Of a DNA stretch of 64,000 bases, positions 10,950 to 50,143 are shown in pieces. The DNA lies in assembly GCA_963749595.1 (NCBI GenBank), contig CAVVNJ010000010.1, forward strand, positions 1,223 to 65,222, in the 5' to 3' direction. A program made the translations under genes and the position numbers. Positions within the stretch are counted from its first letter, which is position 1. Each line of letters begins with the position of its first letter. The DNA is from Candidatus Woesebacteria bacterium (GTDB lineage: Bacteria > Patescibacteriota > Microgenomatia > UBA1400 > UBA1396). Under the pieces are notes generated by a model. The model ran no database searches, was not told where the DNA came from, and was given only the letters and a program-made list of their open reading frames with translations.

Positions 10950-11387
10950 CTAAATCTTGGTTCCCACGTGTTTCCAACCAATCAACCCGGCCTCGATTGG
11001 GTTTCGGAGAATATACTCCCGTACCCGCTCACGCTCGGCTTCGGTCCGTAAATAGACGGCCCGGAAACTGCCCTCAAACTGCTGCCCCGTCAAGGAATAC
11101 TTCTTTCGGAGGTATAAACCATAGCGAATCATTATCGAGCGCATGAACTCGGTAATGTCCCGCTGCTGTTTTTGAAAATAACGAAAATGAAAGTGGGTAT
11201 CGAGCAGACAATAAGTATCGACCAATATCAGTCCCGCCATCTCCCGGATTTTCCGCCGCACAATTTTGCGAAAAACCCAATAGTCTTTGTCCTCGAAGAA
11301 AACCGGCTGTTTATTAACTCCCCTGGAGTAAATATGGTACCAACCGTTTTCGACGTATGGGAAAATGCGATTGATTCTTGGCATCAT
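10950..11387 (-). mobile_element. REP-associated tyrosine transposase (RAYT, IS200/Y1-like)
   Basis: It has the HUH-type motif (..LLDTHFHFRYF..) and the C-terminal ..REYILRNPIEAGLIGW.. typical of RAYT/Y1 transposases. REP units flank it on both sides. Confidence 0.75.
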
Positions 11388-16221: not shown

Positions 16222-16693
16222 GGAATATACATCTCCCTGGCCAGTTGCGCCTCAAATGGGTGGGTAAAGGCACCGGGAAGATCCGCTTGGAGGAACATTT
16301 GGGTACCGTTGGCGTCCAGTCCGGCAATTTAGGGACTTTTTCTGAGCCATTGGGATGCCAATTTAAAACTGGGGACTTTTCGGGGACTATTTGAGTCCAG
16401 GGCGTCAAGTCGAGTAGGGTTGTGTCTGTGATTACCGCGTCGATTAACTATCGTTCCCAATATCCACCACTTTCTGCAGCCGACCGAGTTCTCTGAATTT
16501 GATGGTCCATAAAAGGTACGCATAAAGTCCCCGATTTAAAGTCGGCACACTAAAGGCACCTAAAAGCTCCTTATTCGACCAACCGGGGTTAAACCAGAAC
16601 CAATTGTGGACCATTAAGGGAACATCACTGGAACATTTACGGACTATTTCGGGCGCAAATCGCTGGGAGGATATAGATCCCAAACTCGTGAAG
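16222..16693. mobile_element. TIR-bounded repeat element, copy C (divergent, no RHH ORF)
   Basis: The left end is GGAATATACATCTCCCTGGCCAGTTGCGCC. The right end is GGCGCAAATCGCTGGGAGGATATAGATCCCAAACTCGTGAAG. The right end and the following ..TTGTGAAAAACCAAAA match copy B. Confidence 0.55.
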
Positions 16694-16716
16694 AGAATTG
16701 TGAAAAACCAAAAGAC

Positions 16717-25931: not shown

Positions 25932-25955
25932 AGCATTTAGACGGACTAGCACGCT

Positions 25956-26032: not shown

Positions 26033-26078
26033 GCGATAGCAAATTATATCATTTCGGGTGTGCGATAATTTCCTGGCT

Positions 26079-27164: not shown

Positions 27165-27170
27165 CTCGCC

Positions 27171-27521: not shown

Positions 27522-27569
27522 AAAATCCTTTTTTCCAGGTTATTTATTAGTGATTATAGCAAAATTAGA

Positions 27570-28058: not shown

Positions 28059-28103
28059 GGAGCAATTTTAGCATTTGCTAGAATCGATTCAGAAAGGCCA
28101 AAT

Positions 28104-28532
28104 ATGCGTTGGCTTAAGCGGATGGAAACACTAAGCGGCCGGTTTCAAAAACCTGAGACCGGCAACGAAATCTGGCAGTATGGGGGCGAAGATCTGCGCG
28201 AATTGTTCTCTGTCTGGCTGCTCGACTCCATTGTCCGGACCATGAGTGTTTACCACCGGAAGAAACAGCTGCCGATTGCGTCCGAAATTGCCAATCTGCG
28301 CGAACAAGCGGCGGAAGTTGAACGGCGCCTGAGAACCAACGGCTGGTTTTTCGGGCGGGATAGTTCGATTATCAGCGATTACAAAACCATGATCGTCCGA
28401 TCCGGATCATATGGTCAACTTTTCCATGAACAATTCCGACCAGAAATGTCGACTGCCGAAGCTTTGGAATTAATGAAAAGAAATGTTGCCCTGTGGGACT
28501 GGCGCTGGTTTTGGAAGCATCACCAGCGGTAA
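28104..28532 (+). CDS. Hypothetical protein (142 aa)
   Basis: ORF only. Confidence 0.4.
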   Translation: MRWLKRMETLSGRFQKPETGNEIWQYGGEDLRELFSVWLLDSIVRTMSVYHRKKQLPIASEIANLREQAAEVERRLRTNGWFFGRDSSIISDYKTMIVRSGSYGQLFHEQFRPEMSTAEALELMKRNVALWDWRWFWKHHQR

Positions 28533-28535
28533 AAG

Positions 28536-28609
28536 TGAGGGTACTTGGACTTGAACCAAGGACCTCTGTCTTATCAGGACAGCGCTCTAGCCAACTGAGC
28601 TATACCCTC
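28536..28609 (-). tRNA. tRNA-Ile (anticodon GAT)
   Basis: Hand fold: GAGGGTA TA GCTC AGTTGGCTA GAGC G CTGTC CTGATAA GACAG AGGTC CTTGG TTCAAGT CCAAG TACCCTC A. Confidence 0.9.
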
Positions 28610-28656
28610 GATAAATCGAGTTCCAATTGTATCATAAACTGCTACAATGGCCGAGT

Positions 28657-29191
28657 ATGTCCTTCGATCGATCGACTGCTCTCAATCTCCTCGACCAATA
28701 CGTCAAAAACCCTTCCCTGCGGCGCCATTGCGAAATGGTCTCCCAGGCAATGGGCGCCTACGCCGACAAACTCGGAAAGGATCATGAACTTTGGTCGTTG
28801 ACCGGTCTGTTGCACGATCTGGATTGGGAACAATTCCCGGACGAACACCCCATGAAGGCGGTGACGGAAATTTTACCGACGGCCGGTGCCCCGGCGGAAA
28901 TGATCGAGGCGATCGCCGCCCACGCCCCTGCATCGATCCGGCAAAGAGCCGCACACCTTAATGGAACGTTATTTGTTTGCTTGCGACGAAGCCTGTGGTT
29001 TTCTGGACGCCATCGCCAAAATTCGGCCCAACGGCTATGCCGATCTGGAATGGCCATCGGTGCATAAAAAAATGAAGGATAAGCGTTTTGCCGCCAACGT
29101 TTCGCGCGAGGATATTATTAAGGGTGCCGAGTTAATCGAGTTAACCCTGGACGACCATATTTCTTTCCTGATCGACATTTTCCGGAAGTAG
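28657..29191 (+). pseudogene. HD-domain phosphohydrolase with one frameshift
   Basis: Sense switches from ..LTGLLHDLDWEQF..IEAIAAHA to ..RSGKEPHTLMERYLFACDEACGFLDAI.. in the next frame. The switch is at or near the C4 run 28925-28928. Confidence 0.65.
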
Positions 29192-29217
29192 ACACAAAAA
29201 AAGCGCCTAAGGCGCTA

Positions 29218-29270
29218 TTGGGGTCTAACCCTCTTGAAGTCAACTTGTGACCTCCGAAGGTTAGACCCCA
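29218..29270. repeat. REP-like palindromic units downstream of 16S
   Basis: GGGGTCTAACCCTC ... GAAGGTTAGACCCC. A further unit, GAGGGTTAAACCCTC, lies at about 29362-29376. Confidence 0.5.
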
Positions 29271-29377
29271 GCCCCGTCCCCATTCTCCATATTTCGCCAA
29301 TCAATCTAACGGAGCAGAAACCGATTGGTTACTTAAAGAGCGCGGGGCACTCTTAGTTTTTGAGAGGGTTAAACCCT

Positions 29378-29408
29378 CAGATAAACAGCACACGGACTGA
29401 CAGGAAGG
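29378..29408 (-). other. 3' half of the 16S processing stem
   Basis: CAGATAAACAGCACACGGACTGACAGGAAGG is the inverted complement of 31055-31084, about 28 of 30 positions by eye. Confidence 0.7.
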
Positions 29409-29499
29409 CCTGGACACTGAGATCACAGGACTTCTGGAGTTTTACTAACATTACTGTTAGAAGGGAAGAGGCGTGAGGCCCTTACCTTGAACTCCTTAG

Positions 29500-31001
<1,502 letters not shown>

Positions 31002-31054
31002 TAGAATGTAACGGAAAATTACTGTCTCACGGAGAGACAAAAGATTCCGTAAAA

Positions 31055-32153: not shown

Positions 32154-33303
32154 TTACTCCCCCTCCCCAGCAAATCCGGGTATCGATCGGGTCATAAAAA
32201 ACCACCGATTGTCCGGGGGCAATGCCGCGTTGAGATTCGTTCAAAATTAATTCACCCTGATCGCGGTTGATTTTTAACTCAGCGGGAAGCAGGGCGCCGC
32301 CATGACGCAAACGGGCTAGTACCGAAACAACTAGATTATCACCGGGAAAAATCTCTGGATCGCGCCAAAACAGATCGTTTAATTTAACTTTCGCGCTTTC
32401 GGTTTCCGTGCCGAAGCCGACCGTGATCGTGTTGGCCGTTGCGTCTTTGGCAATTACATAGAGCGGCGGCAAAACGTGTTTCCATTCTTGATGGTTGATG
32501 TGAACCATAGGAAATAACTCAAAACCATGGCGCTGGCCGATGGTGTACAACCATACTCCCTGGTGTCGACCAATGATGTTGCCATCCGGATCAAGGACGT
32601 CGCCAGGTTTTTCACCGAGACGCGCGCGCAAAAATTCGCGGACATCAATGTCGCCGATAAAACAAATTCCTTGCGAGTCCGGCTTGTCCGCCACCGGAAT
32701 ACCCTTTTCTTTCGCCAGGCGGCGCACTTCGGCTTTGGTCAGGTGACCGATCGGAAAAACCACGTGATCAAGCTGGTCCTGGCGCAAGCGGTACAAGAAA
32801 TACGTTTGATCCTTTTTCTCGTCCATCCCGCGCGCCAATACCAAGGAATGATTCCTACCCGACCCCACCTCAGGAGGAATCAATCCGGAATCAATCCTCT
32901 CGGGAAAGGGTCGGGTAGGAATCATTCCTGTCAACAGGATTTGGGCGTAATGGCCGGTGGCGATCGCGTCAAAACCTTGCTTGATGGCCCAGTCGTAGAA
33001 CAGGCCAAACTTGATCTCGGTGTTGCACCAAATATCCGGATTGGGGGTAAGACCGCGCTCGTAGGCGCGGAAAAATTCTTCCACCACCCGCTCGCGGTAG
33101 GCATCCCGAAAATCGAGTACGCGGAACGGCAATCCCAAATCCAACGCCACAGCCAAGGCATCTTTGCGATCCTCTTCCGCTCGGCAGCCTGGCGCCCGCC
33201 AACACTCCAAAAAGACCCCGGTCACTTCATGACCAGCGTCTTTAAGCAAGGCCGCGGAAAGCGACGAATCGACTCCGCCCGACATGCCAAGGGCTATTTT
33301 CAT
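32146..33303 (-). CDS. mnmA: tRNA-specific 2-thiouridylase MnmA carrying an in-frame ~29-codon repeat-element insertion
   Basis: It has the PP-loop KIALGMSGGVDSS, ..IATGHYA.. and ..KDQTYFLY... The extra segment MIPTRPFPERIDSGLIPPEVGSGRNHS maps onto the 86-bp element. Confidence 0.9.
   Translation of the reverse strand: MKIALGMSGGVDSSLSAALLKDAGHEVTGVFLECWRAPGCRAEEDRKDALAVALDLGLPFRVLDFRDAYRERVVEEFFRAYERGLTPNPDIWCNTEIKFGLFYDWAIKQGFDAIATGHYAQILLTGMIPTRPFPERIDSGLIPPEVGSGRNHSLVLARGMDEKKDQTYFLYRLRQDQLDHVVFPIGHLTKAEVRRLAKEKGIPVADKPDSQGICFIGDIDVREFLRARLGEKPGDVLDPDGNIIGRHQGVWLYTIGQRHGFELFPMVHINHQEWKHVLPPLYVIAKDATANTITVGFGTETESAKVKLNDLFWRDPEIFPGDNLVVSVLARLRHGGALLPAELKINRDQGELILNESQRGIAPGQSVVFYDPIDTRICWGGGVIA
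32844..32929. repeat. 86-bp nested palindromic element, copy 2 (inside mnmA)
   Basis: AGGAATGATTCCTACC...CACCTCAGGAGGAATCAATCCGGAATCAATCC...GGTAGGAATCATTCCT has the same architecture and core as 9185-9270. Confidence 0.85.
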
Positions 33304-37735: not shown

Positions 37736-40700
37736 TTAGATCGGACAGGCCCCGCTGGCACACTTCAGGGCTTCAAGATCAATGTCCTCCAGCAATTCTT
37801 CATCCTCTTCAATTTCGTTGAGAACGCGGACAAATTCCCCCGTCGTCATCGGTTGTTCCGGCTGGTACTCGTAGGCGGTGGTGTCTTGCTGCGGCATGAC
37901 CGAGCAACATTTCACCTGACTCTGGTACTGTTTGATCATAGCCGCGTACTGGGTAAAAGCCACTTTCGTCGGATTGTACTTGAGGGTGTAGGAAACTTGA
38001 TTGCCGGTGTCGGGTAAGGGTTGACCACTTTCGTCCACGCCTACAATCCAGTATTTTTCCAACAACATCAACCATTTATACTGCTCCTCAGGAGTAGCTT
38101 CCGCCGCGGTAACCAATCCACCATTCATACCCAGACGACAAATCTCGGGTTGAGTGGGAAAGCCCACGATGGCGGTCCCGGCGTAGCTTTTCAATTCTTT
38201 GACCGGATAACCTTTTTTCTCGTAGCGCTTGACCAAAGGATCATCAACGCGAAACTGCACCCAGCGCAAATATTCGCGCATGCTGGGCAGGTGTGCCCCC
38301 TCCGTCAGAGCAAACAACTTTGACGTTGTTCCAGCTGGTTTAATAGTAGTATTGGTGTGTGGCACCGGCACACCGAGCTGTTGGGCATATTTCGCTGCTT
38401 CTTCCACTACCGCCCGCTTAAAACGAGACAGGCTTAGCCAGAAATCTTGGGCCTTCTCTTCGTCGATCAGATCGCGAAAAGACAAGCCGAAATAATTCCA
38501 AGCAAACTCATGCACTCCGGTCATGCCGACACCAATCCGGTTGGTTCGCTTTACCTCGCGGTTATATAAGGAATCCATGGTGTTAACCCGGATTAGGGCG
38601 CGCGTCGCCGCGCGGAAAGCTTCCTCAGCGTCGTCCAGAGTGGGAGCAAAATACGGCACCACATCCGCGATGACGCAGTAACCGCCCAACATGTTCAGCG
38701 AAATTTCACCACAGGGGTTGACGATTTGGCTATAAACCTTGGACGAAGCATTTTTAGCCAGATGTGCCAACATTTTTTCCGTCCGCTTCATTGGCTGATA
38801 CTTAGCGCTAGCGGCATATTTACCGTCCAAATAGCCATCGTAATTGTCGTCGTTTTGCACTAAGCGATGCTGGTTGATAAAGCCCGGTTCGCCGGTGCCA
38901 TCCTCGTAGCTGGCCCGCAAAATGGCGTCCAAAAGTTTTTGGGAGTGCTGAGTGCGCTGCTTCCAAAACTTTTCGTCCACCGCGACTGAGTTGTTGGCAC
39001 TCCAGAGAAAACCGCCGCGCTTAATGTTAACGAAATCGACAATCTCCGGATCGGTCCAAACCTTAGTGGCAATCCGAGCACTGCGCCGGGCGCCGCCAAC
39101 CAGGACGCATTCCGCCAGATAATGATCCACGTACATCGTTTGCTTCCACGGCGACATGCCGGAACCACGAACCGAGGTCAGGCGTTCAATCGCCCGCATC
39201 AAAGGTTTGGGTCCGGAGGCGGGACGATCCTGCATACCGTGAATCGGCGCGCCCTTGGGCCGGACTTGGGAAAAATCCAAGATCAACAAATCATCTTTGT
39301 GCTTCTTTTCGTAGGCCATGGTTTCGATCATCTCCACTGCCTGAGACCAACCCTCCCGGTGGTCGGGAACGGTAAACCAGATGGAAGAATCACCGTATTT
39401 GTGCCGCGCATCGCGCACGCTCTCATCAATTCCCCAGACGAAATCGGGATGATTCTCGTCAATGACACAGCGCACATTGGGCATAAAATCCCAGTTGACC
39501 ACGCACATGTCGTCGTCATAGGCCCGGCCAACGCCGGAACCGTTCATCAATAAATAGAACATGATGTAGGACGATGAGGCCGTCGAACAGTTGCCGGTTA
39601 GTAACCCATTGGCTAACACAAAACCAGTGGTTACCGGCTCCTCAACACAGAAAACCTCGTCTTTTCCAGCCGGCTCAATGCTTAGTACTTTCCTGGCCTT
39701 GTTTTGGGCCAACCTGATCGAAAATAGAGGCTTCCCGTTCGCATACGAACCGTCCCCGCTCTTCCGGTCGTGGGAAGAAAAACCAGTAATAATAAAGCCG
39801 GCGTAGGGCGCAAATTCTTTTAGCCACTCCGCTGCCTCCGAATTGCTAGTGCTGATCTCCAAACCCTTGGTGGTGGGGTAGGTTTTGGATCCATCAGCCA
39901 ACCACCAGCCAAAAATAAAACCAGCAATGTACGTTGGATCATGGGTAAAAGGTAAATCCTTCCAATCTTTGGCGCCCACATAAACTACCGGATCTCCGCC
40001 GGCATGCTTTGGGTAAGTGGTGGTATAACCACCAAAATACTGTAAAAAGTTCTTATCATCGCCACACAGACGAATCGAGTTGTACTGCTTTCCTTGAGAA
40101 TGGATTCTGCCGCCATAGTCACTGCGCGATTTATGTCCGGTTCCGTCGCCGAAGATTAATCCGTGACGAATGCCTTCTTCATCCCGATTTTCTTCCGATT
40201 TGGCCGACTCTAAAATATCGCCCACCTGCAAATTATCGGTGATGGTGTCATCAGCCAAGAACCAGCGGTGATTCCTGGTGGCCAGAACTTCAGGATGATA
40301 GTTGGTAGCCGCATTATTAACCGGACCAAAAACAATTTTAAACAACTCTTGCTGTCCATAGCTTTTAACTTTGGCTGACCGCCATTGACCATCACGGCTT
40401 TTCACCGTCATTGTCTTTCCAACAACTTCGCCAATCGTTACCGAACCATGCTCTTGTGTCAGAATTTTTGTTGATTTATCAAAACAATTCGTAAAAACTT
40501 CCATGTTGCGCTCGGGCTGGGTTTCATCACCATGTTGCAGATGACGGCCGGACATTAATAAAGTGGCGTTGGCAATGTGTTTTTTGAGCAGTTCGTACTC
40601 GGTCTGACGGTGCTTACGCTGCTTGGCCGGAATAAGACGGGTATTTCCCAGAGCCACCCGCTCCGCCACGTCTTCCCAGGTCTCCATTTGGCCATTAGTC

Positions 40701-40786
40701 TTGGTCCGTAAAATTGTCCGTCGCGCCACGGCGAGGCCCATACCCCGATCCAGACGCCGAACCACAAACTTCATCTTTTTTTTCAC
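37736..40786 (-). CDS. nrdJ: Class II (adenosylcobalamin-type) ribonucleotide reductase NrdJ interrupted by an intein
   Basis: It has ..VNPCGEISL.. and the C-terminal ..KCASGACPI Cys pair. An intein occupies aa 101-399. The 4-nt overlap with the nrdR stop indicates an operon. Confidence 0.9.
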   Translation of the reverse strand: MKKKMKFVVRRLDRGMGLAVARRTILRTKTNGQMETWEDVAERVALGNTRLIPAKQRKHRQTEYELLKKHIANATLLMSGRHLQHGDETQPERNMEVFTNCFDKSTKILTQEHGSVTIGEVVGKTMTVKSRDGQWRSAKVKSYGQQELFKIVFGPVNNAATNYHPEVLATRNHRWFLADDTITDNLQVGDILESAKSEENRDEEGIRHGLIFGDGTGHKSRSDYGGRIHSQGKQYNSIRLCGDDKNFLQYFGGYTTTYPKHAGGDPVVYVGAKDWKDLPFTHDPTYIAGFIFGWWLADGSKTYPTTKGLEISTSNSEAAEWLKEFAPYAGFIITGFSSHDRKSGDGSYANGKPLFSIRLAQNKARKVLSIEPAGKDEVFCVEEPVTTGFVLANGLLTGNCSTASSSYIMFYLLMNGSGVGRAYDDDMCVVNWDFMPNVRCVIDENHPDFVWGIDESVRDARHKYGDSSIWFTVPDHREGWSQAVEMIETMAYEKKHKDDLLILDFSQVRPKGAPIHGMQDRPASGPKPLMRAIERLTSVRGSGMSPWKQTMYVDHYLAECVLVGGARRSARIATKVWTDPEIVDFVNIKRGGFLWSANNSVAVDEKFWKQRTQHSQKLLDAILRASYEDGTGEPGFINQHRLVQNDDNYDGYLDGKYAASAKYQPMKRTEKMLAHLAKNASSKVYSQIVNPCGEISLNMLGGYCVIADVVPYFAPTLDDAEEAFRAATRALIRVNTMDSLYNREVKRTNRIGVGMTGVHEFAWNYFGLSFRDLIDEEKAQDFWLSLSRFKRAVVEEAAKYAQQLGVPVPHTNTTIKPAGTTSKLFALTEGAHLPSMREYLRWVQFRVDDPLVKRYEKKGYPVKELKSYAGTAIVGFPTQPEICRLGMNGGLVTAAEATPEEQYKWLMLLEKYWIVGVDESGQPLPDTGNQVSYTLKYNPTKVAFTQYAAMIKQYQSQVKCCSVMPQQDTTAYEYQPEQPMTTGEFVRVLNEIEEDEELLEDIDLEALKCASGACPI
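39590..40486 (-). mobile_element. Intein (299 aa) with a LAGLIDADG-type homing endonuclease domain
   Basis: The junctions are ..EVFTN|CFDKSTKILT... and ...VLANGLLTGN|CSTASS... The N-terminal residue is Cys, the C-terminal residue is Asn and the +1 residue is Cys. The two dodecapeptide motifs are HGLIFGDGTG and AGFIFGWWLADGS. Confidence 0.8.
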
Positions 40787-41435: not shown

Positions 41436-41895
41436 TTCACGAGTTTGGGATATATACCCTCCCAGCGTTTTGCCTCCCAAATTATCCCTTAAAGTAACCT
41501 TAAACTGCTCCCTAAACTAACCGGTTTGTGGTTACTCTGGGGACTTTTGGACAGATGTGGTCCACTAGTGGTCCATCTTTGGCCAGAGTGGGCAAATAGG
41601 GGTCAAGAATGGGCGAATGGATTCCAATTACTTTCGAGCTTGATTAGCATTGGGAGCAACTACTTATCGACTACTACGCAATCAAGTTCATTCTGACAGC
41701 ATCTTTGGTTTTTAAGTAGTCGATTGGTCCCCAAATTACCCCCTGCTTGCCCGGATGGACTCAAACTAACCCAGTAATGGACCCCTACTGCCCGAAAGGT
41801 CTGATTAAGGACCCTGTTTAGGGTCACCTTTGGGAGTAATTAGAGGCCTCCGGAGGGGACAGTTTGGGAGGCAAAACGCCAGGAGGGTATATATT
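41436..41895. mobile_element. TIR-bounded repeat element, copy A (inverted relative to copy B; RHH ORF deleted/decayed)
   Basis: The ends are TTTCACGAGTTTGGGATATATACCCTCCCAGCGTTTTGCCTCCCAAATTATCCC and GGGGACAGTTTGGGAGGCAAAACGCCAGGAGGGTATATAT. The arms align by eye with 49499-50120. Confidence 0.75.
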
Positions 41896-41933: not shown

Positions 41934-41955
41934 ATGTACTAGTATACTAGTACAT
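41934..41955. repeat. Perfect 22-bp palindrome ATGTACTAGTATACTAGTACAT
   Basis: Seen directly. It is intergenic, between the sufT-like stop and TIR element A. Confidence 0.9.
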
Positions 41956-42010: not shown

Positions 42011-42331
42011 TTAGAAACCCAGCTCGGCCTTGGCGGATTCGCTTAAACGATCAATATTCCAGGGCGGATCAAAGGTGAGCTCCAACCGCAGGTCGCGCTC
42101 CGGCAAAAAATCCGGCAAATTGGCTAAAGATTTCTCAATCGATTCCAAAATGGTATCGGCCAGAGGACAAGCGGGTGTGGTGAGAGTGTAGCGAATCACC
42201 ACCAGTGGTGGATTGGTGGGATCCGTCGCCACAATTACCTCATAGATCAAACCCAAATCGACAATATTAATCCCCAATTCCGGATCTATTACCTGGCGCA
42301 AACGCTCCCGGATTTCCGATTCGGTTACCAC
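42011..42331 (-). CDS. DUF59/SufT-like Fe-S cluster assembly factor
   Basis: It contains ..VIDPELGINIVDLGLIYEV...TLTTPACPLADTI... Confidence 0.75.
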   Translation of the reverse strand: MVTESEIRERLRQVIDPELGINIVDLGLIYEVIVATDPTNPPLVVIRYTLTTPACPLADTILESIEKSLANLPDFLPERDLRLELTFDPPWNIDRLSESAKAELGF

Positions 42332-44104
42332 TTAGGCCACCCGGATCTTCGCCAGTTCTTGAGTGGTGGTAATGTCCGCCACGCTTTTGTCATCCCGAAA
42401 CCGCACCAGACGGGGAAAACGCAACGCCACCCCCGCCGTATGCAGTGGCGATTTGGTAATCTCGTCCGCCGCCACTTCAACCACTAACTCCGGCGTCAGG
42501 AGCACATCCGGTTGTAACGCCTCCGGAATATCAATTTGCCAAGCGGATTTTTTCTGACCTTTGGCCGCAATTTGGTTAGCCCGCTCTTTGAACTCCCGCC
42601 ACTGTTCATCCGAAAGACCGGTGCCGATCTTGGCCAGAGTCACAATTGCGTCGCGTTTGGGATCAAGAACGCCGACCAAAAAAGCGCCGACACCAAAGGC
42701 GGTTCGTTTGCCCCGACCGGCATACGTTCCCAACACCACCGCGTCGACGGTGTCGGTCAGCTTGGCCGTGGTCCCCTCCACTTCTTTCATCTTGACCCAG
42801 TTAAAATCCTGGCGTCCGGGTTGATAGAAACCGTCGACGCGCTTAATCACTACCCCTTCCAGCCCGGCGCCCAACTGCTTTTGGTGGAATTCACGAAAAG
42901 CTTCGGGGTCGGTAGTTCGCAAATGCGGGGCCAGGGTCAAATCGCGTTTGGCCGGCGCCAGTACCTTTTCCAGCTGAGCCCGGCGCTCGGCCATCGGCAC
43001 CCGCAGCAACGACCGGCCGTTGTAATAAAGCAGATCGAAAACAAAGAAACGCAGTGGAATGCTGGCGGCCGCGGCCTCAATGCCGTGCTTGCGTTTGCGC
43101 TTGATGGTTTGCTGAAAAGTCACCAGCTCGCCACTTTCCGGATCATAGCCCACGGCTTCGGCGTCAAAAATGACTGTCTGGGCGTCGACTTCCGCCACGA
43201 ACTTGGGCAGCTCGGGAAACATCGGGGTGTTTTCTTCCAGATTGCGGGTATAAGAATGTAGCTCTCCGGTCTGGGAGTTCCAGTGAATTTGCAACCGGGT
43301 GCCATCATATTTGGGCTCAACGAAGACCTCACCCATCTTGGCGATCACTTCAGTGGGACTTTTAATCCGGTCGCATAGTGCGGCCAAGATCGGCACACTC
43401 AAGGCCGCGTCCAACTTCTGGGCCGCCGTCAAACCGCCGCGCAAAACTTGAGCCGCGATTTCCCCGATGTCAGGGTGGCGTTGATAAATGTCATCTAGTT
43501 CCGGACGAACCGACTTGTCTCCCTTGAGAAACCAAGACAGGGCATCCAAAATAGTACGGTCGGAAAAACCGAGCCGCAGGTGTCCCATCACCATTCGCGC
43601 CACATACCGAGCCGACAGCGGATCGAGTTCCTTAAACAGCGCTGCCACCGCGCGGATCTTTTCGTCCTGACTCCCCTGTCCGCCCAGCTCGGTAATTTCC
43701 AGCAGTCGAGCATACAAATCTTTGACCGTTAGCGAACCCTGGCCACCAAACTTACGCACGACCTCCTCGGCCAATAGACCAATGTCACCCAGTTTCTTGA
43801 ACCGCTTCTTCATTTGTTGCTTGGCTTCTTCATCACGCAACCCTACCGCTCCACCAAATAAATCGGTTTTGTGTTCCCCGCCCTCGATCGACGTTAGGGA
43901 ATAAAGCATGAACTGCAAGCCAAAGTTATATTCCCGATTGGCATAAATTGGCCCCGTTTGACCGAGCACCAGATAAAGAAACGGCGCCACCTCGTCGGCC
44001 GTGACCGAATGCAAAAACTCCGCCAGAAGACGGGTCTGCTCTAGTTTTTTACTAGTAACTTCCAGCGGCTGCAAAACTTTTTGGGTGAAATCGGCGACTT
44101 TCAT
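42332..44104 (-). CDS. ATP-dependent DNA ligase, three-domain Lig1/archaeal-like (590 aa)
   Basis: The adenylation motif is VEPKYDGTRLQIHW (KxDG). It also has ..EGVVIKR.. and ..WVKMK.. motifs, and a long N-terminal DNA-binding-domain-sized region. Confidence 0.9.
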   Translation of the reverse strand: MKVADFTQKVLQPLEVTSKKLEQTRLLAEFLHSVTADEVAPFLYLVLGQTGPIYANREYNFGLQFMLYSLTSIEGGEHKTDLFGGAVGLRDEEAKQQMKKRFKKLGDIGLLAEEVVRKFGGQGSLTVKDLYARLLEITELGGQGSQDEKIRAVAALFKELDPLSARYVARMVMGHLRLGFSDRTILDALSWFLKGDKSVRPELDDIYQRHPDIGEIAAQVLRGGLTAAQKLDAALSVPILAALCDRIKSPTEVIAKMGEVFVEPKYDGTRLQIHWNSQTGELHSYTRNLEENTPMFPELPKFVAEVDAQTVIFDAEAVGYDPESGELVTFQQTIKRKRKHGIEAAAASIPLRFFVFDLLYYNGRSLLRVPMAERRAQLEKVLAPAKRDLTLAPHLRTTDPEAFREFHQKQLGAGLEGVVIKRVDGFYQPGRQDFNWVKMKEVEGTTAKLTDTVDAVVLGTYAGRGKRTAFGVGAFLVGVLDPKRDAIVTLAKIGTGLSDEQWREFKERANQIAAKGQKKSAWQIDIPEALQPDVLLTPELVVEVAADEITKSPLHTAGVALRFPRLVRFRDDKSVADITTTQELAKIRVA

Positions 44105-44123
44105 AACTGTAGATTACCAGAGC

Positions 44124-45233
44124 TTAGACCAAGGTGTAATTCACGCCCTTGGTGACACCGTGCTTGCGAATGATGCCCTTGGCGATTAGGTCTTTCAGAT
44201 CGCGCAAAATGGTATCGGTAGAAATCAGTGGCAGAATTTCGTTCAAGTCTAGCGAGCTAACCTTGCCCCGCTCCTGCAAGTATTCCATGATAATTAACTG
44301 GCGCTCGGTCAGGGCCACCTGTTGACCGAGCTTTTTCTGCAGGCGAAAATCTTGGGACAGTTTGAGCACGGCTTGCTTGATCCGGTCCAACTCGATTGCC
44401 AAGCCGTAAGAAAAATATTCCAACCAGTAGGTTAGATCAGAATTGGGGCTATCCTGCACCGATTTGATGGCCCGGTAGTAACCCTCAATGTCATTGTCAA
44501 AATACTGTTCGAGTGAGAAAAAGCGCTTGACGTCAAATCCCTCGGCGTACATCAGGGCGAGCGCGGCCGCGCGGGCGGTCCGACCGTTGCCCTCGATAAA
44601 CGGATGGATGTGCACTAGCTGATAATGCGTCGCGGCCGCGCGAAAAATGGTGTGCAATCCTGAAGATTCGGGACCGTTCAACCAGGCAAAAAACTCTTTC
44701 AGGAGCAGCGGCACTTCTTCCGGAATCGGCGGGCGGTAAGCGATTTGTCCGCTTTCCACGCTGCGCACCACGACGCGCTGAGTACGGTACTGACCACAAT
44801 TTTCCGGCGGAATGATCCGGTGTACGCACAGCGAGTGCCAGGTACGCAACATATCCTCGGTATAAAGCGGGCGCGCTCCAGGCGAAATTTTACGGCCCCA
44901 ATCATTAATCCAGTCCAGAACGGCACGATAGTTAATCACCTCCTGAATGTCGCGCGCCCGGCCCACAATGCCAGCCTGACGGGCTACCTCATCGGTCTGG
45001 GTTCCAGGGGTCGCGATCACCCGCTCCGCTTGCTCGGCGCTTAATTCATTACCCTCCAGACGGGTGCCGTGATAAACCGTGCGCACCCGCGCTTCCTGCT
45101 GAAACTTGGCCTCCCAGGCCGGTACCATTGGCGCATTACGGATAACCTCCCGCGACGCCTCAATGCTGGCAATATATTGGAGTAAGTTATTACTGATTCG
45201 AAAATTGGGCTGAAACATATCGCTACCAAACAC
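44124..45233 (-). CDS. Fic-family protein with a C-terminal winged-helix domain
   Basis: It carries the Fic motif HPFIEGNGRTAR. Confidence 0.85.
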   Translation of the reverse strand: MFGSDMFQPNFRISNNLLQYIASIEASREVIRNAPMVPAWEAKFQQEARVRTVYHGTRLEGNELSAEQAERVIATPGTQTDEVARQAGIVGRARDIQEVINYRAVLDWINDWGRKISPGARPLYTEDMLRTWHSLCVHRIIPPENCGQYRTQRVVVRSVESGQIAYRPPIPEEVPLLLKEFFAWLNGPESSGLHTIFRAAATHYQLVHIHPFIEGNGRTARAAALALMYAEGFDVKRFFSLEQYFDNDIEGYYRAIKSVQDSPNSDLTYWLEYFSYGLAIELDRIKQAVLKLSQDFRLQKKLGQQVALTERQLIIMEYLQERGKVSSLDLNEILPLISTDTILRDLKDLIAKGIIRKHGVTKGVNYTLV

Positions 45234-45273
45234 ACTGTATCACTATTTCGGCATCTTTTGCAACAATCAGACT

Positions 45274-45282
45274 TGCTATAAT
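45274..45282 (+). promoter_or_regulatory. Extended -10 promoter (TGC-TATAAT) for the 45292 gene
   Basis: The + strand reads ..gactTGcTATAATgtatggttcATG. Confidence 0.45.
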
Positions 45283-45291
45283 GTATGGTTC

Positions 45292-45597
45292 ATGCCAAAA
45301 ACACCGCGCAACTTCCAAGAACTTCCCTTGGCCTTCGTCCAGGAATCCATCGCTCTCGCCACCTCTGGTTTTGGCCTGGTGGTTGCCCTCGCCTGGAACG
45401 AACTGGTCAAGGATTTAATCAGCCATTACGTTGAACCCTACCTCGGTGCCTCCAGCGGGACGATCTCAAAATTAATCTATGCCCTCGTGATGACCTTCCT
45501 GGCGATTTTCGTGACCATGCAGTTGGTGAGAGTCGAGCAAACTTTGCAGCATCTGGCTGATCGGAAAAAAAAATCGACTAGGAAAAAAACAACTTGA
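45292..45597 (+). CDS. Small two-TM membrane protein (101 aa)
   Basis: It has two hydrophobic helices and a basic tail (..DRKKKSTRKKTT). Confidence 0.55.
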   Translation: MPKTPRNFQELPLAFVQESIALATSGFGLVVALAWNELVKDLISHYVEPYLGASSGTISKLIYALVMTFLAIFVTMQLVRVEQTLQHLADRKKKSTRKKTT

Positions 45598-45672
45598 CAT
45601 AAAAGATGATTTAGATTATAAGTAAACTTGCTAAATCCAATGTGTCTATCAACTAGCACAATTGAGCAATTA

Positions 45673-45696
45673 ATCCCTCTCGCAGAGGGATTTTTT
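45673..45696 (+). terminator. Intrinsic terminator
   Basis: ATCCCTCT-CGC-AGAGGGAT is followed by T6. Confidence 0.75.
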
Positions 45697-45749
45697 GTGG
45701 TTTTTGTAACTATCTGGTAAGAATTATTTGCTATAAAGCGAGTGTGGTC

Positions 45750-45821
45750 AGGCCCGGCTACTGGTAGCAAATTGGATTTAGCATCTCAATTACGGGGGTT
45801 CGATGCCCCTCGGGTCCACCA
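45750..45821 (+). ncRNA. tRNA-Ala-like RNA #3 (acceptor stem + T-arm + ACCA, no anticodon arm found)
   Basis: AGGCCCG | 37 nt | GGGGG TTCGATG CCCCT | CGGGTCC | ACCA. The pairs are A1.C72, G2:C71, G3:U70, then 4 G:C pairs. Confidence 0.4.
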
Positions 45822-46832
45822 CTATTGAGTGACCAGCATCCAAGCAATTGGTATCTGCTCGATCAGATCCGAGGTATTAAACATGACACCCTGTTTTAGA
45901 TATAGCTCGTGTCCAGCTTGTTTATTCAGCCACGCCCCCACCACCGCCGAAGCAAAAGCCGGAGATGTAGCCCGGAAACCCAAGATCAAACCAGCTAACG
46001 CATCGCCGGTGCCACCTTTGCTTAGTCCTGCGTTGCCACCAGCTAGAATCACCAGCTCCGCGTCGTTCCAAATTAAATCAACCGTTCCCTTCAGCAAAAA
46101 GGTCGCTCCCCGGCAATCTTGAGAAAGATGATGTAGTTGATCCCGCAACCGACCGTCGATAAAATTCTGCCAGATATGTTCGGAAACAAACTGCGCCGGC
46201 AAAGAATCGGGGTTTCCCAAAGGATGGTGAACCGAGTGGGCCAAATCCTGCTGCGCTGACAGTAATTTTTCCAACCAGCCGGGAGTGCCACCAGGCAGCT
46301 TGGCCAAAAATTGCCTTAGTTCAACCAGGTGCGGCGTTAACACTGCCTCCGCCGGCGTCCAAGTTGGGTCCATTACCTGTAACGCGCCGGCATCGATTAT
46401 CCAACGCTTACTCGGCCAACCCAGCAGCAACGCCGCCGTGACCGCCCGCGTATCGGTTTCCCAATCCAACGGTAATAATTCTTCGGCCCGGAGTTGATTT
46501 AATTGTTCGTCGGTAAAACGGGTAACCACGTCACGCCGCATGCCCGGCCCAATCAAAATCGCGTCGGCTTCTCCCAAATAATGCGGCAACTCAGCCCGGG
46601 GCACCACCACACCATCATGGGCATAAAACTTGGCGTCACGCAGTAGCTCGTTATTCTCTGCCACCGAGGCATAAAAAGTCATGTCGACCAAGCGGGAACA
46701 AATTTTAAAACTCCACTGGCTGGCGGCGTGAAATAAATCGCTGCCGCCGACAATCAGCGCCTTGCCATTCTGACCTTTGTGGGACAGGGGTTGAGGCTGG
46801 TGAATTTGCGCCAGAAAGCCGGAAAGCATCAT
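45822..46832 (-). CDS. NAD(P)H-hydrate dehydratase / YjeF C-terminal carbohydrate-kinase-like protein
   Basis: It contains ..GGNAGLSKGGTGDALAGLILG... Confidence 0.75.
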   Translation of the reverse strand: MMLSGFLAQIHQPQPLSHKGQNGKALIVGGSDLFHAASQWSFKICSRLVDMTFYASVAENNELLRDAKFYAHDGVVVPRAELPHYLGEADAILIGPGMRRDVVTRFTDEQLNQLRAEELLPLDWETDTRAVTAALLLGWPSKRWIIDAGALQVMDPTWTPAEAVLTPHLVELRQFLAKLPGGTPGWLEKLLSAQQDLAHSVHHPLGNPDSLPAQFVSEHIWQNFIDGRLRDQLHHLSQDCRGATFLLKGTVDLIWNDAELVILAGGNAGLSKGGTGDALAGLILGFRATSPAFASAVVGAWLNKQAGHELYLKQGVMFNTSDLIEQIPIAWMLVTQ

Positions 46833-46849
46833 TGACTCGAGTATAGCAG

Positions 46850-47470
46850 CTAGCGCGACGTCTCCGCCGACGTGACGCCGATTTGATAAGCGGCTACGAT
46901 TTGCACCAGAGTGTCACGCGGCAAACCAACCAAACTAAGGACATAAGGCAAACGATTTCCCTCCTCGACTAGCTTATCCAGCGAAAAGGCCCCGGTGGTT
47001 GGATCAAACAACTTGGCTAAATGCTGAAGCGCAGCAATCGAGTGTTCGGTTTTAAGCGCTGCCGTCTGATTCCCATTAACTAAACCTGGCTGGCTAACTT
47101 TAATGAGCTGTTGCGTTTTGGCGTGGGCCAAATTAAGTAAACCAACCACTTTAATCCGCATGGCCGCCCGCAAGCGGAGTTCGTTGCGCTTAAGTTCTTC
47201 GTCGGTTGAGGGTTCAAAAATCCGCCAAGCGGCCGATTTGGTGGCGACTTGGTAGTTATTTTTTTGGAGCTGGAGCCAAATCGAGCCAATAACCACGATC
47301 TCGGTCATCTCCCAAGCAATATCCCAGAGCAATACTTGGACTGGCGTACCGACTTCCCGGAAGCGCTGATAAAACTCTTCCTGAGTTTGGGTTTGTGGAT
47401 CGAAGTGGAATAAATCCGAGTGCTTATTGGTGCTGGGCAGAACCTCGGTCTCGGGTGGCTTCCTGATCAT
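46850..47470 (-). CDS. Hypothetical protein (about 206 aa)
   Basis: ATG at 47470 forms an ATGA overlap with the recF stop. No motif was recognised. Confidence 0.45.
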   Translation of the reverse strand: MIRKPPETEVLPSTNKHSDLFHFDPQTQTQEEFYQRFREVGTPVQVLLWDIAWEMTEIVVIGSIWLQLQKNNYQVATKSAAWRIFEPSTDEELKRNELRLRAAMRIKVVGLLNLAHAKTQQLIKVSQPGLVNGNQTAALKTEHSIAALQHLAKLFDPTTGAFSLDKLVEEGNRLPYVLSLVGLPRDTLVQIVAAYQIGVTSAETSR

Positions 47471-48513
47471 AGGAGGGTAGTATACGTCATGGTCAAAGTG
47501 GGTGGAATCTCGATACAAGTGAGGATGACTTGTTGACCTTTGACCGCTCTTAAAAGGAACGATTGATTGTCGGCGTCCAGTTCAGAAAAAACGTCATCGA
47601 GCAATAAAACCGGCGCCTCGGCTGAGCGGGAACGCAAGTACGCCAACTCGCTCAATTTCCACCAGACGAGGGCTAAACGCTGTTCACCACGGGAACCAAA
47701 ATGTTCAATGTCACGCCAATCGCCACCGCGGGAAAACTCAATTTTCCAATCGTCCTTGTGCGGGCCGACCAGCGTATGACCCGCCCCCACCTCGGCTTGG
47801 GCATAATGATGTAAGCGTTCTTCGGAAATAACCGAGTGATCATAAGTCACACGGTATGGTTCGCGAATTCCGTCTTGTTGACTGAGCCACTGGAGAAATT
47901 CGGCGCGGGCGGTATGGAGCACTGTACCGTGTTCGATCAGGAGCCGGTCCCAGGCAAAAAAATCATAGCGATCAGCCTGACCAGTGCGTAGCTGAACGAT
48001 GAGTTTGTTGCGGCGGCGCAGGGCTTGTTCGTAGCCACGCCGGGAACGGCGATAATCGGGCCAAACTTGATCCAACAGCCGGTCCAACAAGCGCCGCCGC
48101 GCACTCGGACCCGCCTGAAAAACATTCATGTCTTCCGGCGTGAACAAAACGGTTTGCAACTGGCCCGCCGCCTCGCTGGAGCGCCGCCCCACCCCGTTCA
48201 CCCGGTACAAACGCTTATTGGTTCGTTTGCCTTGGATTGAACCGGCGGTAAAAATTTGCTCCAAATCGATTATTTCGCCGCTGTCTAACTCGACTTTGCC
48301 TTTAATTCGCCCCAATTCACTTTGCCAGCGGATTAATTCTTCGGTCCGATCGGCGCGCCAGGACTCGCCGGTGGCCAATAACTGAATGGCTTCAATCAAA
48401 TTGGACTTGCCGCTGCCGTTGGGGGCGGCCAAAACATTGAGTCCTGGCGCAAAGACCCAATGCTTTTCGGCAAAAGAGCGAAAATTTTGCAACCACAGAC
48501 CGTCGATTCTCAT
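47467..48513 (-). CDS. recF: DNA replication/repair protein RecF
   Basis: It starts MRIDGLWLQNFRSF..., has the Walker A motif APNGSGKSN and the ..LLLDDVFSELD.. signature. Confidence 0.9.
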   Translation of the reverse strand: MRIDGLWLQNFRSFAEKHWVFAPGLNVLAAPNGSGKSNLIEAIQLLATGESWRADRTEELIRWQSELGRIKGKVELDSGEIIDLEQIFTAGSIQGKRTNKRLYRVNGVGRRSSEAAGQLQTVLFTPEDMNVFQAGPSARRRLLDRLLDQVWPDYRRSRRGYEQALRRRNKLIVQLRTGQADRYDFFAWDRLLIEHGTVLHTARAEFLQWLSQQDGIREPYRVTYDHSVISEERLHHYAQAEVGAGHTLVGPHKDDWKIEFSRGGDWRDIEHFGSRGEQRLALVWWKLSELAYLRSRSAEAPVLLLDDVFSELDADNQSFLLRAVKGQQVILTCIEIPPTLTMTYTTLL

Positions 48514-48584
48514 TTGGCGCTAGCGTACCACACGCCTGCTAGCTAATAATGCTGCTTGATCGACTGAAAAAAAATATGTTATAA

Positions 48585-49169
48585 ATGAGGTCTATGTTTA
48601 AGTCACTGAAGAAGTATTTGTTTCTCCTCGTCCTGGCCATGTTTGCCGTCCCGGCTCTGGCCCAAAGACCCTCACCCCGACCCACTCCCCGGGCGACCAA
48701 CAAGCCGGTGACTGCCCGGATGAATGCCTGTTTGGCCAAGGAAAGGGCGATTGAAACCCGCATGTCCAGTTTGGTCCGCTTCACCGACAATATGATCGAA
48801 AAATTCACGGCGATTACGCTGCGGGTCCAAGAGTTTTACACCACGAAGGTGCTGCCAACCGGGGAGGTAGTGCCTAATTATGACGCGATGATCGCTAATA
48901 TCGAGGCCAAGAAGCTGGCGATTCAGCCACTGGTCACCAAGGCCCAGAGTGACGTCACGGCTTTTTCTTGTGAAGGCGACACGAGAGTAATTTTCAACAC
49001 TTTCCGCCAGGATATGCAGGCGGTGAAGCAGGCGCTTCATGAATACCGGACGGCGATCAAAAGCTTGATCGTCGCGGTGAGCGGCGTGGTTGAGGAAGCT
49101 GAAGCCACTCCAACCCCGACTCCGTCCCCTACCCCGACGCCAACTCCCACCACCACCCCAGAAACTTAA
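48585..49169 (+). CDS. Secreted helical protein with a Pro/Thr-rich C-terminal tail
   Basis: The signal peptide is ..LVLAMFAVPALAQ. The tail is ..ATPTPTPSPTPTPTPTTTPET. Confidence 0.5.
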   Translation: MRSMFKSLKKYLFLLVLAMFAVPALAQRPSPRPTPRATNKPVTARMNACLAKERAIETRMSSLVRFTDNMIEKFTAITLRVQEFYTTKVLPTGEVVPNYDAMIANIEAKKLAIQPLVTKAQSDVTAFSCEGDTRVIFNTFRQDMQAVKQALHEYRTAIKSLIVAVSGVVEEAEATPTPTPSPTPTPTPTTTPET

Positions 49170-49447
49170 TGAGGAATAACATGAAACAAAACTCCGGCGA
49201 ATTACAACTAACTTCCACCGCGGTCGGCTTGGTCCTGGGCGGACTGCTGGTCGGCGTCTATTTCTGGCTAATGAATTCTCAGCCAACGCCTCCTTTAATG
49301 GGTAATGAAGCGGCCACGGTCGTTGAACGGGCTTCGGAAATTGAAAGCCGGGCTCAACTGGAGGCGGTCAATCGCGAACTGGACGCCACCAATTTGAACG
49401 AAATCGATTCCGAATTGACGCGGATTCAAACGCAGGTTAATTACTAG
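49169..49447 (+). CDS. Small single-TM protein (92 aa)
   Basis: Its start overlaps the previous stop. The TM segment is AVGLVLGGLLVGVYFWL. Confidence 0.4.
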   Translation: MRNNMKQNSGELQLTSTAVGLVLGGLLVGVYFWLMNSQPTPPLMGNEAATVVERASEIESRAQLEAVNRELDATNLNEIDSELTRIQTQVNY

Positions 49448-49498
49448 CCAAGCGGGTTAGCCACTTTTTCAAAACAGTCGAGCTGATTGCCCGCCCCA

Positions 49499-50120
49499 GG
49501 ATATATATCCTCCCAGCGTTTTGCCTCCCAAACTGTCCCCTAGGGAGACCTCAAATTGCTCCCAAGGGTGACCCTAAACATGCCCTAATTCAGACCTTGC
49601 GGGCAATAGGGGTCCATTACTGGGTTAGTTTCAGTCCATCCGGGCAAACAGAGGGTAATTTGGAGACAGATCGACTAGTTAAAAACCAAAGATACTATCG
49701 GCATGCTCTTTTCTAGCCGGTGTCGATTTAGGTAGCGCTCCAGCTTGGCCAAGCTCCTGATAAATCAAATAACGAATAAAATTAGGTACAGTTAATTCTA
49801 ATAACTTGGCTCGATCTTTCAATAATCGGTAAGTAGTTGGTCCTAAGGTTAATCGAACTCGAGTATCAGCCATGAGTCTGTTTATACACTTCGATTCTTA
49901 CCCAATACTAACCGATAGCAGTTTATCGGCGGATCCACTCGCCCATTCTTGACCCTTATTTGCCCGCCATGGCCACAGATGGACCGCTGGTAGACCCCAT
50001 CTGCCCAAAAGTCCCTAGAGTAACCACAAACTGCTCCTAAAACTAACCTATCTGGGGTCACTTTCGGGGGTAATTTAGGAGGCAAAACACTGGGAGGGTA
50101 TAGATCCCAAACTCGTGAAG
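49499..50120. mobile_element. TIR-bounded repeat element, copy B (longest; carries the RHH ORF)
   Basis: The left TIR is GGATATATATCCTCCCAGCGTTTTGCCTCCCAAACTGTCCCC. The reverse complement of the right TIR is GGATCTATACCCTCCCAGTGTTTTGCCTCCTAAATTACCCC, about 36 of 42 matches by eye. Arms of about 180 nt on each side are conserved with copy A. Confidence 0.8.
49679..49873 (-). CDS. Ribbon-helix-helix (CopG/Arc-like) small protein inside TIR element B
   Basis: MADTRVRLTLGPTTYRLLKDRAKLLELTVPNFIRYLIYQELGQ... follows a beta-strand, helix, helix pattern. Confidence 0.5.
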   Translation of the reverse strand: MADTRVRLTLGPTTYRLLKDRAKLLELTVPNFIRYLIYQELGQAGALPKSTPARKEHADSIFGF

Positions 50121-50143
50121 CCATTCGTGAAAAACCAAAAATC

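Follow-up and report, generated by a model that had tools for sequence, protein, structure and literature searches.

A lineage-restricted family of long, imperfectly palindromic intergenic elements with a central gene for a probable ribbon-helix-helix protein in a Patescibacteria genome

What kind of repeat carries, as its only gene, one for a small DNA-binding protein and no transposase? The question is raised by a 64-kb stretch, hereafter the window, of a contig of at least 177 kb from a Candidatus Woesebacteria bacterium (GCA_963749595.1, CAVVNJ010000010.1). A first-pass annotation, made from the letters of the window, had described three copies of an element bounded by terminal inverted repeats (TIRs), the longest of which held an open reading frame (ORF) ascribed to the ribbon-helix-helix (RHH) class. 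The analysis presented here assigns these copies to a family of intergenic elements that are long, imperfectly palindromic ("foldback") and lineage-restricted, in a genome of the Patescibacteria (CPR). The anatomy of the elements, the gene at their centre, their ends and the sites that they occupy are described in turn, after which the explanations for their spread are weighed.

Anatomy of the elements and their gene

All three copies were borne out at the positions first proposed, copy A being inverted relative to copy B and copy C divergent. Copy B (49499..50140, - strand, the strand of its RHH gene) is full length, with 642 nt including a right-end extension and a tail; its core, 49499-50120, lies between the stop codon of a 92-aa ORF (49447, + strand) and that of lepA (50144, - strand). 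Copy A (41436..41895, 460 nt, with its RHH-sense strand on the + strand of the window) sits between the FeS_assembly_P stop codon (42011) and the start of nrdR. Copy C (16222..16713, - strand, approximately 490 nt including the tail, core 16222-16693) sits between the radA stop codon (16717) and the conserved leader region of rho. Pfam matches or homologues bear out the identities of LepA, RadA, NrdR, Rho and FeS_assembly_P. Each copy displays sharp ends and unrelated flanks; a short similarity past the left ends of B and C (AGTCGAG..AT.GCC) was not relied on. The arms of the two closest copies are conserved, as had been described: A and B share four opposite-orientation matches of 127, 99, 80 and 78 nt at 83-89% identity, and are 87% identical overall across approximately 400 nt, although their flanking genes are unrelated. 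Copy C aligns well at its ends only, its right end matching that of B over 76 nt at 83%.

The sole conserved ORF of the family is the 64-aa RHH-like ORF at the centre of copy B (P0001, 49679..49873, - strand). Among 1.84 billion representative proteins searched with HMMER it has a single homologue, P0122, a protein of 66 aa with 48% identity (E 1e-6). The gene for P0122 is central in a 0.67-kb element on a 2.5-kb contig (L005) of JGI sample 3300037424, where the element is placed between two convergent genes and has as its boundaries a 53-nt inverted repeat (85%, ATATATCCCCGCGCCATTTTGCGCC...), with further inner inverted repeats. The same sample yielded L001, the locus of the closest relative found, whose LepA is 93% identical to that of the window. 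The repeats are therefore not confined to the window, as they would be after a local segmental duplication: a homologous element with its own RHH gene stands on L005. Word-indexed protein searches, whether made with the ORF by itself or with the two sequences aligned, returned just these two members, and tblastn of the RHH proteins over the RadA and LepA loci (1.4 Mb) added none. One candidate, L006, emerged when JGI metagenomes were scanned with the back-translated RHH alignment; it was rejected as a false positive, lying antisense inside a 441-aa gene.

Comparison of the first 58 codons of the two genes gave 10 identical, 17 synonymous but different and 31 non-synonymous codons, that is, 17 of the 27 conserved residues are specified by different codons. 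Residues kept despite differing codons indicate that the protein is under purifying selection, with silent sites saturated. Judged from these sequences, the ORF is a real gene belonging to the element, and the claim that copy B encodes a 64-aa protein is upheld by both the homologue and the codon pattern. B and L005 have no further ORF in common, the 57-aa ORF of L005 being out of frame with the B ORF at the corresponding place, upstream of the RHH gene; the putative DNA-binding protein thus stands as the sole cargo, as was first thought, and a toxin-antitoxin pair was dropped as an explanation since no conserved second ORF lies next to the RHH gene. A -10-like hexamer, TATAAA (49881..49886, - strand), is located exactly 7 nt upstream of the ATG. 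The L005 gene has TATAAC at the same 7-nt spacing, and a Shine-Dalgarno sequence is missing in both genes. This spacing suggests that the mRNA of the RHH gene is probably leaderless. Promoter and terminator scans inside the elements yielded nothing above background.

The assignment of the protein to the RHH class is best described as probable, and is founded on matches that are weak but concordant. The best PDB match of the two-sequence profile is the RHH regulator AvtR (4hv0, E 0.0084). P0122, not P0001, matches RHH_5 (E 0.062) and a NikA-like family (E 0.055) in Pfam, both below the curated cut-offs, as well as MobA in NCBIfam (E 0.037), whereas P0001 alone gave no Pfam match. The best tblastn match among plasmids is annotated as a CopG-family regulator (E 0.2). 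When the two sequences were supplied to AlphaFold2, the monomer displayed a helix-loop-helix (helices 12-24 and 29-43, pLDDT 85-90) with the N-terminus drawn as a helix rather than a strand; the single-sequence model (pLDDT 64) was uninformative. Foldseek placed AvtR, Arc, CopG and RHH antitoxins at the top of the matches to the model, all with E >1. The first-pass identification of the ORF as RHH accordingly holds in the direction to which every match points, but not at the level of statistical significance, which no match reached. With RHH (MetJ/Arc/CopG) proteins, AvtR and the relaxosome accessories of NikA/MobA type, the ORF shares its size of 64-66 aa, and with RHH proteins it shares an N-terminal motif of alternating residues, RVRLTLGP, followed by two helices. 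Unlike known RHH families, it belongs to a family with two members only in the databases searched. To our knowledge, the centre of a palindromic repeat element has not been described as a genomic setting for RHH proteins.

The full-length layout, seen in B and L005, runs from a terminal palindromic head through an arm of approximately 180 nt to the central RHH gene of 64-66 aa with its own promoter, and on through a mirrored arm to an inverted head. The inverted repeats at the termini are imperfect and measure 58-73 nt (73 nt at 74% in A, 58 nt at 78% in B); their presence agrees with the earlier description, in which they were shorter, approximately 42 bp. In B, the repeat downstream of the gene (49499..49556) starts with a perfect 14-nt palindromic head, AGGATATATATCCT (49498-49511), followed by CCCAGCGTTTTGCC, and its counterpart upstream of the gene (50050..50107) is 78% complementary to 49499-49556. 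The repeat core CCTCCCAGCGTTTTGCCTCCCAAA occurs 4 times at <=3 mismatches, against 0 expected from shuffles. Past the inverted repeat, B has an asymmetric extension (50108..50140) consisting of CAAACTCGTGAA, a short spacer and GTGAAAAACCAAAA, which abuts the lepA stop codon. This extension is nearly identical in C and partly retained in A, and its sequence GATCCCAAACTCGTGAA is found in 3/3 copies against 0.15 expected, in keeping with the remark that one end continues alike in all three. The tail GTGAAAAACCAAAA follows the stop codons of both lepA (ORF end 50144) and radA (ORF end 16717), so that B and C indeed abut these stop codons with a common tail. Read on the - strand, the motif TYTTTGGTTTTTMAC is present after the lepA stop (50127-50140) and the radA stop (16700-16713), and also constitutes the last codons and stop of the RHH ORF (49678-49691; copy A 41702-41716); it thus brackets the "upstream arm plus ORF" of B as a direct repeat. 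A profile built from the ends recovers and aligns all eight ends of B, A, C and L005 (E 1e-11 to 1e-15) and found nothing further in the RadA and LepA loci. A grouping of the C ends with L005 rather than with A and B was dropped because pairwise identities disagree.

Overall identity between B and L005 is 51%, with conserved islands (at least 15 matches in 20) at the termini, the first 12 ORF codons, the helix-2 codons and one non-coding box (GCGGGCAAATWAGGRTC). The box, at 49951..49969 (- strand), reads GGCGGGCAAATAAGGGTC in B and AGCGGGCAAATTAGGATC in L005. It is the only arm-internal island, termini apart, that is conserved between the two, and is a candidate protein-binding site; the first-pass suggestion of iterated RHH-binding sites in the arms stays a conjecture. 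The sub-repeats reported to fill the arms proved weaker than described: the words GGGAC/GTCCC and GGTCC/GGACC are modestly enriched, and the arms do hold units of approximately 22-23 nt together with head-like palindromes, e.g. AGGGTGACCCT at 49565.

The remaining members, namely A, C and a 105-nt mini element on L001, retain the ends and derive from longer forms by internal deletion or decay. By multiple alignment, copy A lacks the B segment 49706-49807, an in-frame loss of codons 23-56, and the segment 49871-49929, which holds the ATG and 56 nt upstream, including the promoter. The rest of its ORF (remnant at 41629..41715, + strand) is in frame but has a TGA stop, with the last 8 codons and the stop kept. 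From this alignment copy A is a deletion derivative of a B-like copy, and the statement that it keeps only the first and last parts of the ORF through internal deletion can now be given with both missing segments mapped. Copy C has decayed further: the inverted repeat and right end are recognisable, the arms no longer pair and the ORF remnant is gone. A perfect 22-nt palindrome, ATGTACTAGTATACTAGTACAT, lies at 41934-41955, just outside copy A, and the L001 mini element with its flank (L001 10330-10460) is rich in TGTACA palindromes. The family spans 0.46-0.67 kb in its larger members, all of which are intergenic and adjoin stop codons. P0001 is recorded on two contigs and the window LepA on one, so that the source genome may hold a further intact RHH gene.

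Copies A and B are imperfect palindromes across nearly their whole length, each forming one long hairpin. RNA folding gave z-scores on the two strands of -9.5 and -6.7 for A and of -6.2 and -4.3 for B, folding of A with DNA parameters gave -6.8, and the L005 hairpin reached -4.8, while the fold of copy C is lost (z about -1). The better-folding strand is not the same in A as in B. Furthermore, profile alignment demonstrated that the changes that set one arm of A apart from that of B have no mirror image in the opposite arm, and hence there is no sign of selection on pairing. Strand-independent folding, unmirrored changes in the arms and the lost fold in C together agree with a decaying inverted duplication at the DNA level rather than with a conserved RNA structure.

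Shared ends and the occupancy of gene 3' sites

Small palindromic elements occur both in the window and in relatives, with heads of 11-13 nt, AGG-N5-7-CCT, spaced exactly 31 nt. On the inner side of each terminal head (T)CCAG(R) follows, in the window as well as in the relatives' loci L002, L003 and L007. Copy B opens with the 14-nt palindrome AGGATATATATCCT followed by CCCAGCG, and also reads AGGATATATATCCTCCCAGCG; in L007 (RadA 69%), radA is immediately followed by an element of three heads with the sequence AGGATAATCCTCCCAGG. A pattern common to the ends of the large elements and to the small three-headed palindromes can therefore be written as a head AGG-N5-8-CCT, then (T)CC(C)AG. On this sequence pattern, the large elements are bounded by REP-like units (in the manner of repetitive extragenic palindromic sequences) of an AT-rich head type.

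The same pattern extends to a gene outside the elements, at 10950..11387 (- strand), for a RAYT-like (REP-associated tyrosine transposase-like) Y1 (HUH) transposase. Its protein matches Y1_Tnp (E 1.8e-4) and, over nearly its full length, REP_Tyr_transpos (E 1e-6), though below the curated cut-offs. Heads of the AGGTCAGACCT type stand on either side of the gene, at 10868, 10899 and 11457, and a homologue on L009, 41% identical, is likewise head-flanked. Heads beside the RAYT-like gene read AAGGTCAGACCTT plus CCAG, and element ends read AGGATATATATCCT plus CCCAG. Since both follow one pattern, the repeats of the RAYT-like gene are not unrelated to the family, contrary to what the first-pass annotation had stated; that no transposase is associated with the element itself was confirmed, its single ORF being that of the small RHH-like protein.

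Small elements are located in the window at 5309-5375, 10860-10912, 11445-11475 and 12231-12282, and in relatives at L002 11844-11918, L003 11807-11881, 15569-15649 and 17782-17825, and L007 11347-11419; they mostly begin a few bases from a stop codon. A further one lies inside the lepA frame of L002 (10539-10635, lepA 10001-11845), where LepA has 614 aa against 593-599 elsewhere, which recalls the Rickettsia palindromic elements. Two heads at 10868-10909 of the window run into a prepilin-like ORF (10278-10916, - strand), covering its initial codons. A third repeat family comprises 86-nt palindromes at 9185-9270 and 32844-32929, in which AGGAATCATTCCT heads form the two ends and a double head occupies the centre; like the L003 family, it includes TCCAGGCGTAG.

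Occupancy of the same gene ends differs between the window and its relatives. At the lepA 3' end, the window has copy B, L001 has the 105-nt mini element, which shares the AT-rich ends of B and bears a comparable extension of hairpin and A-run, and L002 and L003 have small elements of other head types. L087 and L088 have approximately 30 nt to recF and are element-free, and such compact junctions indicate that the elements are dispensable. At the radA 3' end, copy C in the window is matched by the AT-head three-head element in L007, both being upstream of the same conserved host box (AAAAGTTWTCCACATTT). At the FeS_assembly_P 3' end, copy A is matched by a solitary AGGATAATCCT overlapping the stop codon in L088 and by a head pair in L003. 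L007 and L088 are from one assembly, and both of its AT-head sites coincide with the sites of A and C. As far as these alignments of loci go, the elements favour sites that bear heads in relatives. It should be noted that even the orthologous intergenic DNA of the relative with 93% LepA identity is unalignable with the window. That A and B are nevertheless 87% identical implies recent movement of sequence between loci. BLAST of the elements against relatives' loci returned chance matches only. The check for empty sites near lepA and radA that had been proposed at the outset was answered in part, by compact or small-head junctions at these gene ends, though not by an empty site at nucleotide level.

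Routes of movement and rival explanations

It is an evenly balanced proposition, in our judgement, that the elements form a non-autonomous palindromic repeat family bounded by REP-like units and mobilised or exchanged in trans, with the RHH protein as element-encoded DNA-binding cargo. Because the ends share the REP/REPIN-like head pattern, spread or exchange would most likely take place among gene 3' sites already marked by heads. The RHH protein has no catalytic domain and so cannot be the transposase; the mobilising enzyme that we infer would most likely be a RAYT/IS200-like HUH tyrosine transposase acting in trans on the terminal hairpins, and recombination between heads offers an alternative route. 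The most likely targets of the protein itself would be the conserved GCGGGCAAAT-type box and the heads, singly or together, and its role that of an autoregulator, an accessory factor or both. Several results count against this proposal. A transposase with matching ends was not found in the window or in the loci searched, and the sole RAYT-like gene in the window carries a different head type (AGGTCAGACCT, not AGGATATATATCCT). The L005 ends have CCCCGCGCC at the position of CCCAG in the window copies, which means that the shared end pattern is not universal in the RHH family. Target-site duplications, which the first-pass annotation had hoped to define, were absent at A, B, C and L005 under any choice of boundary, and a clean empty site at nucleotide resolution was not found, the flanks in close relatives being unalignable. 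The RHH assignment lacks a statistically significant match, and the unmirrored A/B differences between arms, described above, tell in the same direction. Finally, the five known members (B, A, C, the L005 element and the L001 mini element), which come from one genome and one metagenome sample, are few for an active mobile family.

An ordinary family of miniature inverted-repeat transposable elements (MITEs), mobilised by the DDE transposase of a full-length insertion sequence (IS) elsewhere in the genome and carrying the RHH gene as passenger or regulatory cargo in some deletion derivatives, is considered unlikely. Long TIRs, a length below 0.7 kb, the lack of a transposase gene and the existence of deletion derivatives are all as such a family would have them, and the 64 kb examined are part of a contig of at least 177 kb. 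Against this, the right end is asymmetric and reaches past the inverted repeat, no copy has a target-site duplication, and the two longest members, at two loci, carry the RHH gene only. The ends, moreover, share their pattern with the heads associated with the RAYT-like gene, and exact-pattern scans with the degenerate repeat ATMTATAYCCTCCYRGYGWTTTGC gave 0 matches each in IMG/VR, GTDB representative genomes and JGI metagenomes. The description of the family as MITE-like and non-autonomous thus survives in so far as it is a TIR-bounded, transposase-free repeat family; as neither a target-site duplication nor an autonomous partner was found, "MITE" is an analogy. Decidedly unlikely is the view that the heads and long palindromes are immobile and serve the host in cis at gene 3' ends, for instance as terminators, insulators or nucleoid-protein sites, with a small RHH regulator embedded in one of them and the copies produced by recombination or gene conversion between heads already in place. 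It would account for the heads at the same gene ends in relatives with just 69-75% protein identity, for the intergenic position of every copy beside stop codons, and for long hairpins between convergent genes. It sits poorly with the 87% identity of A and B over approximately 400 nt between unrelated genes, far above the unalignable orthologous intergenic DNA, and with the compact junctions of L087 and L088, where the elements are dispensable.

The weak matches to NikA-like, MobA, CopG and AvtR proteins raise another origin, a remnant of a plasmid, virus or conjugation module: a CopG or ParR/parC-type RHH gene with iterons, a relaxosome accessory with an oriT-like repeat, or an orphan RHH antitoxin. 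Repeated units of approximately 22 nt lie on both sides of the gene, and T4SS-pilin-like genes adjoin lepA in relatives. We nevertheless regard this origin as improbable. No conserved partner (toxin, ParA/ParM, relaxase or Rep) is found beside the ORF in B or L005, the elements are chromosomal and multi-copy with deletion derivatives, the sub-repeats are weakly regular, and searches with the elements against PLSDB plasmids and INPHARED phages gave no match. A large structured non-coding RNA family, whose closing helix mimics an inverted repeat, is suggested by the strongly negative folding z-scores of A and B, but is highly improbable: both strands fold about equally, the better one differs between A and B, DNA parameters agree, the fold is lost in C and the A/B differences are not compensatory, while the centre is a protein-coding gene under purifying selection. 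A match to a known structured RNA was also sought, and Rfam gave none for the elements at the gathering score and no meaningful one at E up to 10. Another reading would extend the proposal of mobilisation in trans to a two-part selfish system of an as yet undescribed kind, in which a REP-like palindromic replicator has acquired an RHH "handler", so that specificity is encoded and catalysis is not. The handler would bind arms or heads and promote extrusion of a hairpin or cruciform, or protect the DNA, after which a host HUH transposase (RAYT-like) would prefer the element over hundreds of plain heads. Modelled on the RHH accessory proteins that make oriT ready for HUH relaxases, this reading is a speculative step with a slim chance of being correct.

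Neighbouring features and relation to known repeats

Other features of the window and its relatives are recorded here as observations in their own right. The order lepA-recF-carbohydrate kinase-Fic-DNA ligase-FeS_assembly_P is kept in the window (42011-50144), L001, L003, L087 and L088, and in relatives approximately 7-9 kb separate this block from dnaA and dnaN. Two additional small genes (92/88 aa and 194/200 aa) stand between lepA and recF in the window and in L001, and the window alone has nrdR and a reductase gene after FeS_assembly_P; the ribonucleotide reductase ORF downstream of nrdR (37736-40786, - strand, 1016 aa) contains a putative intein-like insertion, judged by eye. Upstream of rho (window 15958-16009; L007 11600-11790; L008 11780-11990), hairpins are conserved among relatives, GTGTGGAGGTTCGG...CCGAACTTCCACA in L007 and L008 and a similar AAGAAAGCATC...GATGCTTTCTT in all three, which may represent a rho leader element. 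Three paralogous tRNA-like loci, at 45739-45822 (+), 52074-52150 (-) and 62434-62510 (-), consist of a conserved promoter-like block, TTGTAACTATnTnGTAAGRATT..., then approximately 70-85 nt ending in a canonical T-arm and acceptor 3' strand, with a CCA end in 2/3. They are called neither by ARAGORN nor at the Rfam gathering score, and gave weak tRNA- or tmRNA-like matches in the E-value mode of Rfam. The rRNA genes (21311-31004) are separated by protein-coding genes, in the order 16S (29500-31004), an HD-domain ORF, tRNA-Ile (28535-28609), HIT and acyltransferase ORFs, tRNA-Ala (25956-26032), a 300-aa ORF, 23S (21698-24610) and 5S.

Among known repeats, the nearest in mode are the REP sequences and REPINs, which are mobilised by RAYTs (Bertels & Rainey 2011, PMC3116915; PMC3337134). 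As in a REPIN, two inverted end units are able to form a hairpin (58-73-nt repeats, and whole-element hairpins in A, B and L005), the elements are intergenic at gene 3' ends and lack a transposase of their own, and the end pattern, a palindromic head with CCAG, also marks the small palindromes on the flanks of the RAYT-like gene here and in L009. Unlike REPINs, which measure approximately 70-150 nt and are non-coding, the elements are 460-670 nt, 5-8x longer, and B and L005 carry a conserved ORF. REPINs number tens to hundreds per genome, whereas three copies are present in the 64 kb of the window, with a possible further RHH copy on another contig. The heads are shorter than classical REP hairpins, being palindromes of 11-14 nt, and the GTAG/CGTC tag is absent; unlike in REP-RAYT systems, a RAYT with AT-rich heads on its flanks did not turn up among the loci searched.

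MITEs, ERIC/IRU, Correia/NEMIS and the Rickettsia palindromic elements are likewise sub-kilobase repeats with TIRs, whole-element hairpins and internal-deletion variants, located beside genes. The present elements resemble them in being TIR-bounded, shorter than 1 kb, foldable, next to genes and accompanied by deletion variants. They differ from MITEs in showing no target-site duplication and no parent IS in the databases searched, in an end that is asymmetric past the inverted repeat, and in that the longest of them encode a DNA-binding protein rather than a transposase remnant. The small RHH gene with units of approximately 22 nt on both sides is like the arrangement in ParR/parC and CopG modules; the elements have neither a partition NTPase nor a replication gene, unlike those modules, and are chromosomal and multi-copy, and their repeats, unlike those of ParR/parC, are degenerate, weakly regular and laid out as one long inverted repeat. 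The elements thus resemble REPINs and MITEs in mode but belong, by the features that define membership, to neither. A search of a paper library found no description of a MITE carrying an RHH gene, papers with both terms being on other subjects, and, among the papers listed, no work combining REPINs or RAYTs with Patescibacteria; we know of no description of REP/RAYT-like systems in that group.

REP/REPIN and MITE-type repeats are regarded as non-coding passengers that rely on an enzyme in trans, and the small genomes of Patescibacteria are usually thought to be repeat-poor. Here, the conserved full-length repeat carries one gene, whose predicted product binds DNA and is neither a nuclease nor a recombinase. 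Should the RHH protein act on the arms or heads of its own element, the family would represent an intermediate degree of autonomy, in which recognition or regulation is encoded without catalysis, and it would provide the first view of REP-like repeat biology in Patescibacteria. The family also marks hypervariable sites at gene 3' ends and offers a short, testable protein-DNA pair.

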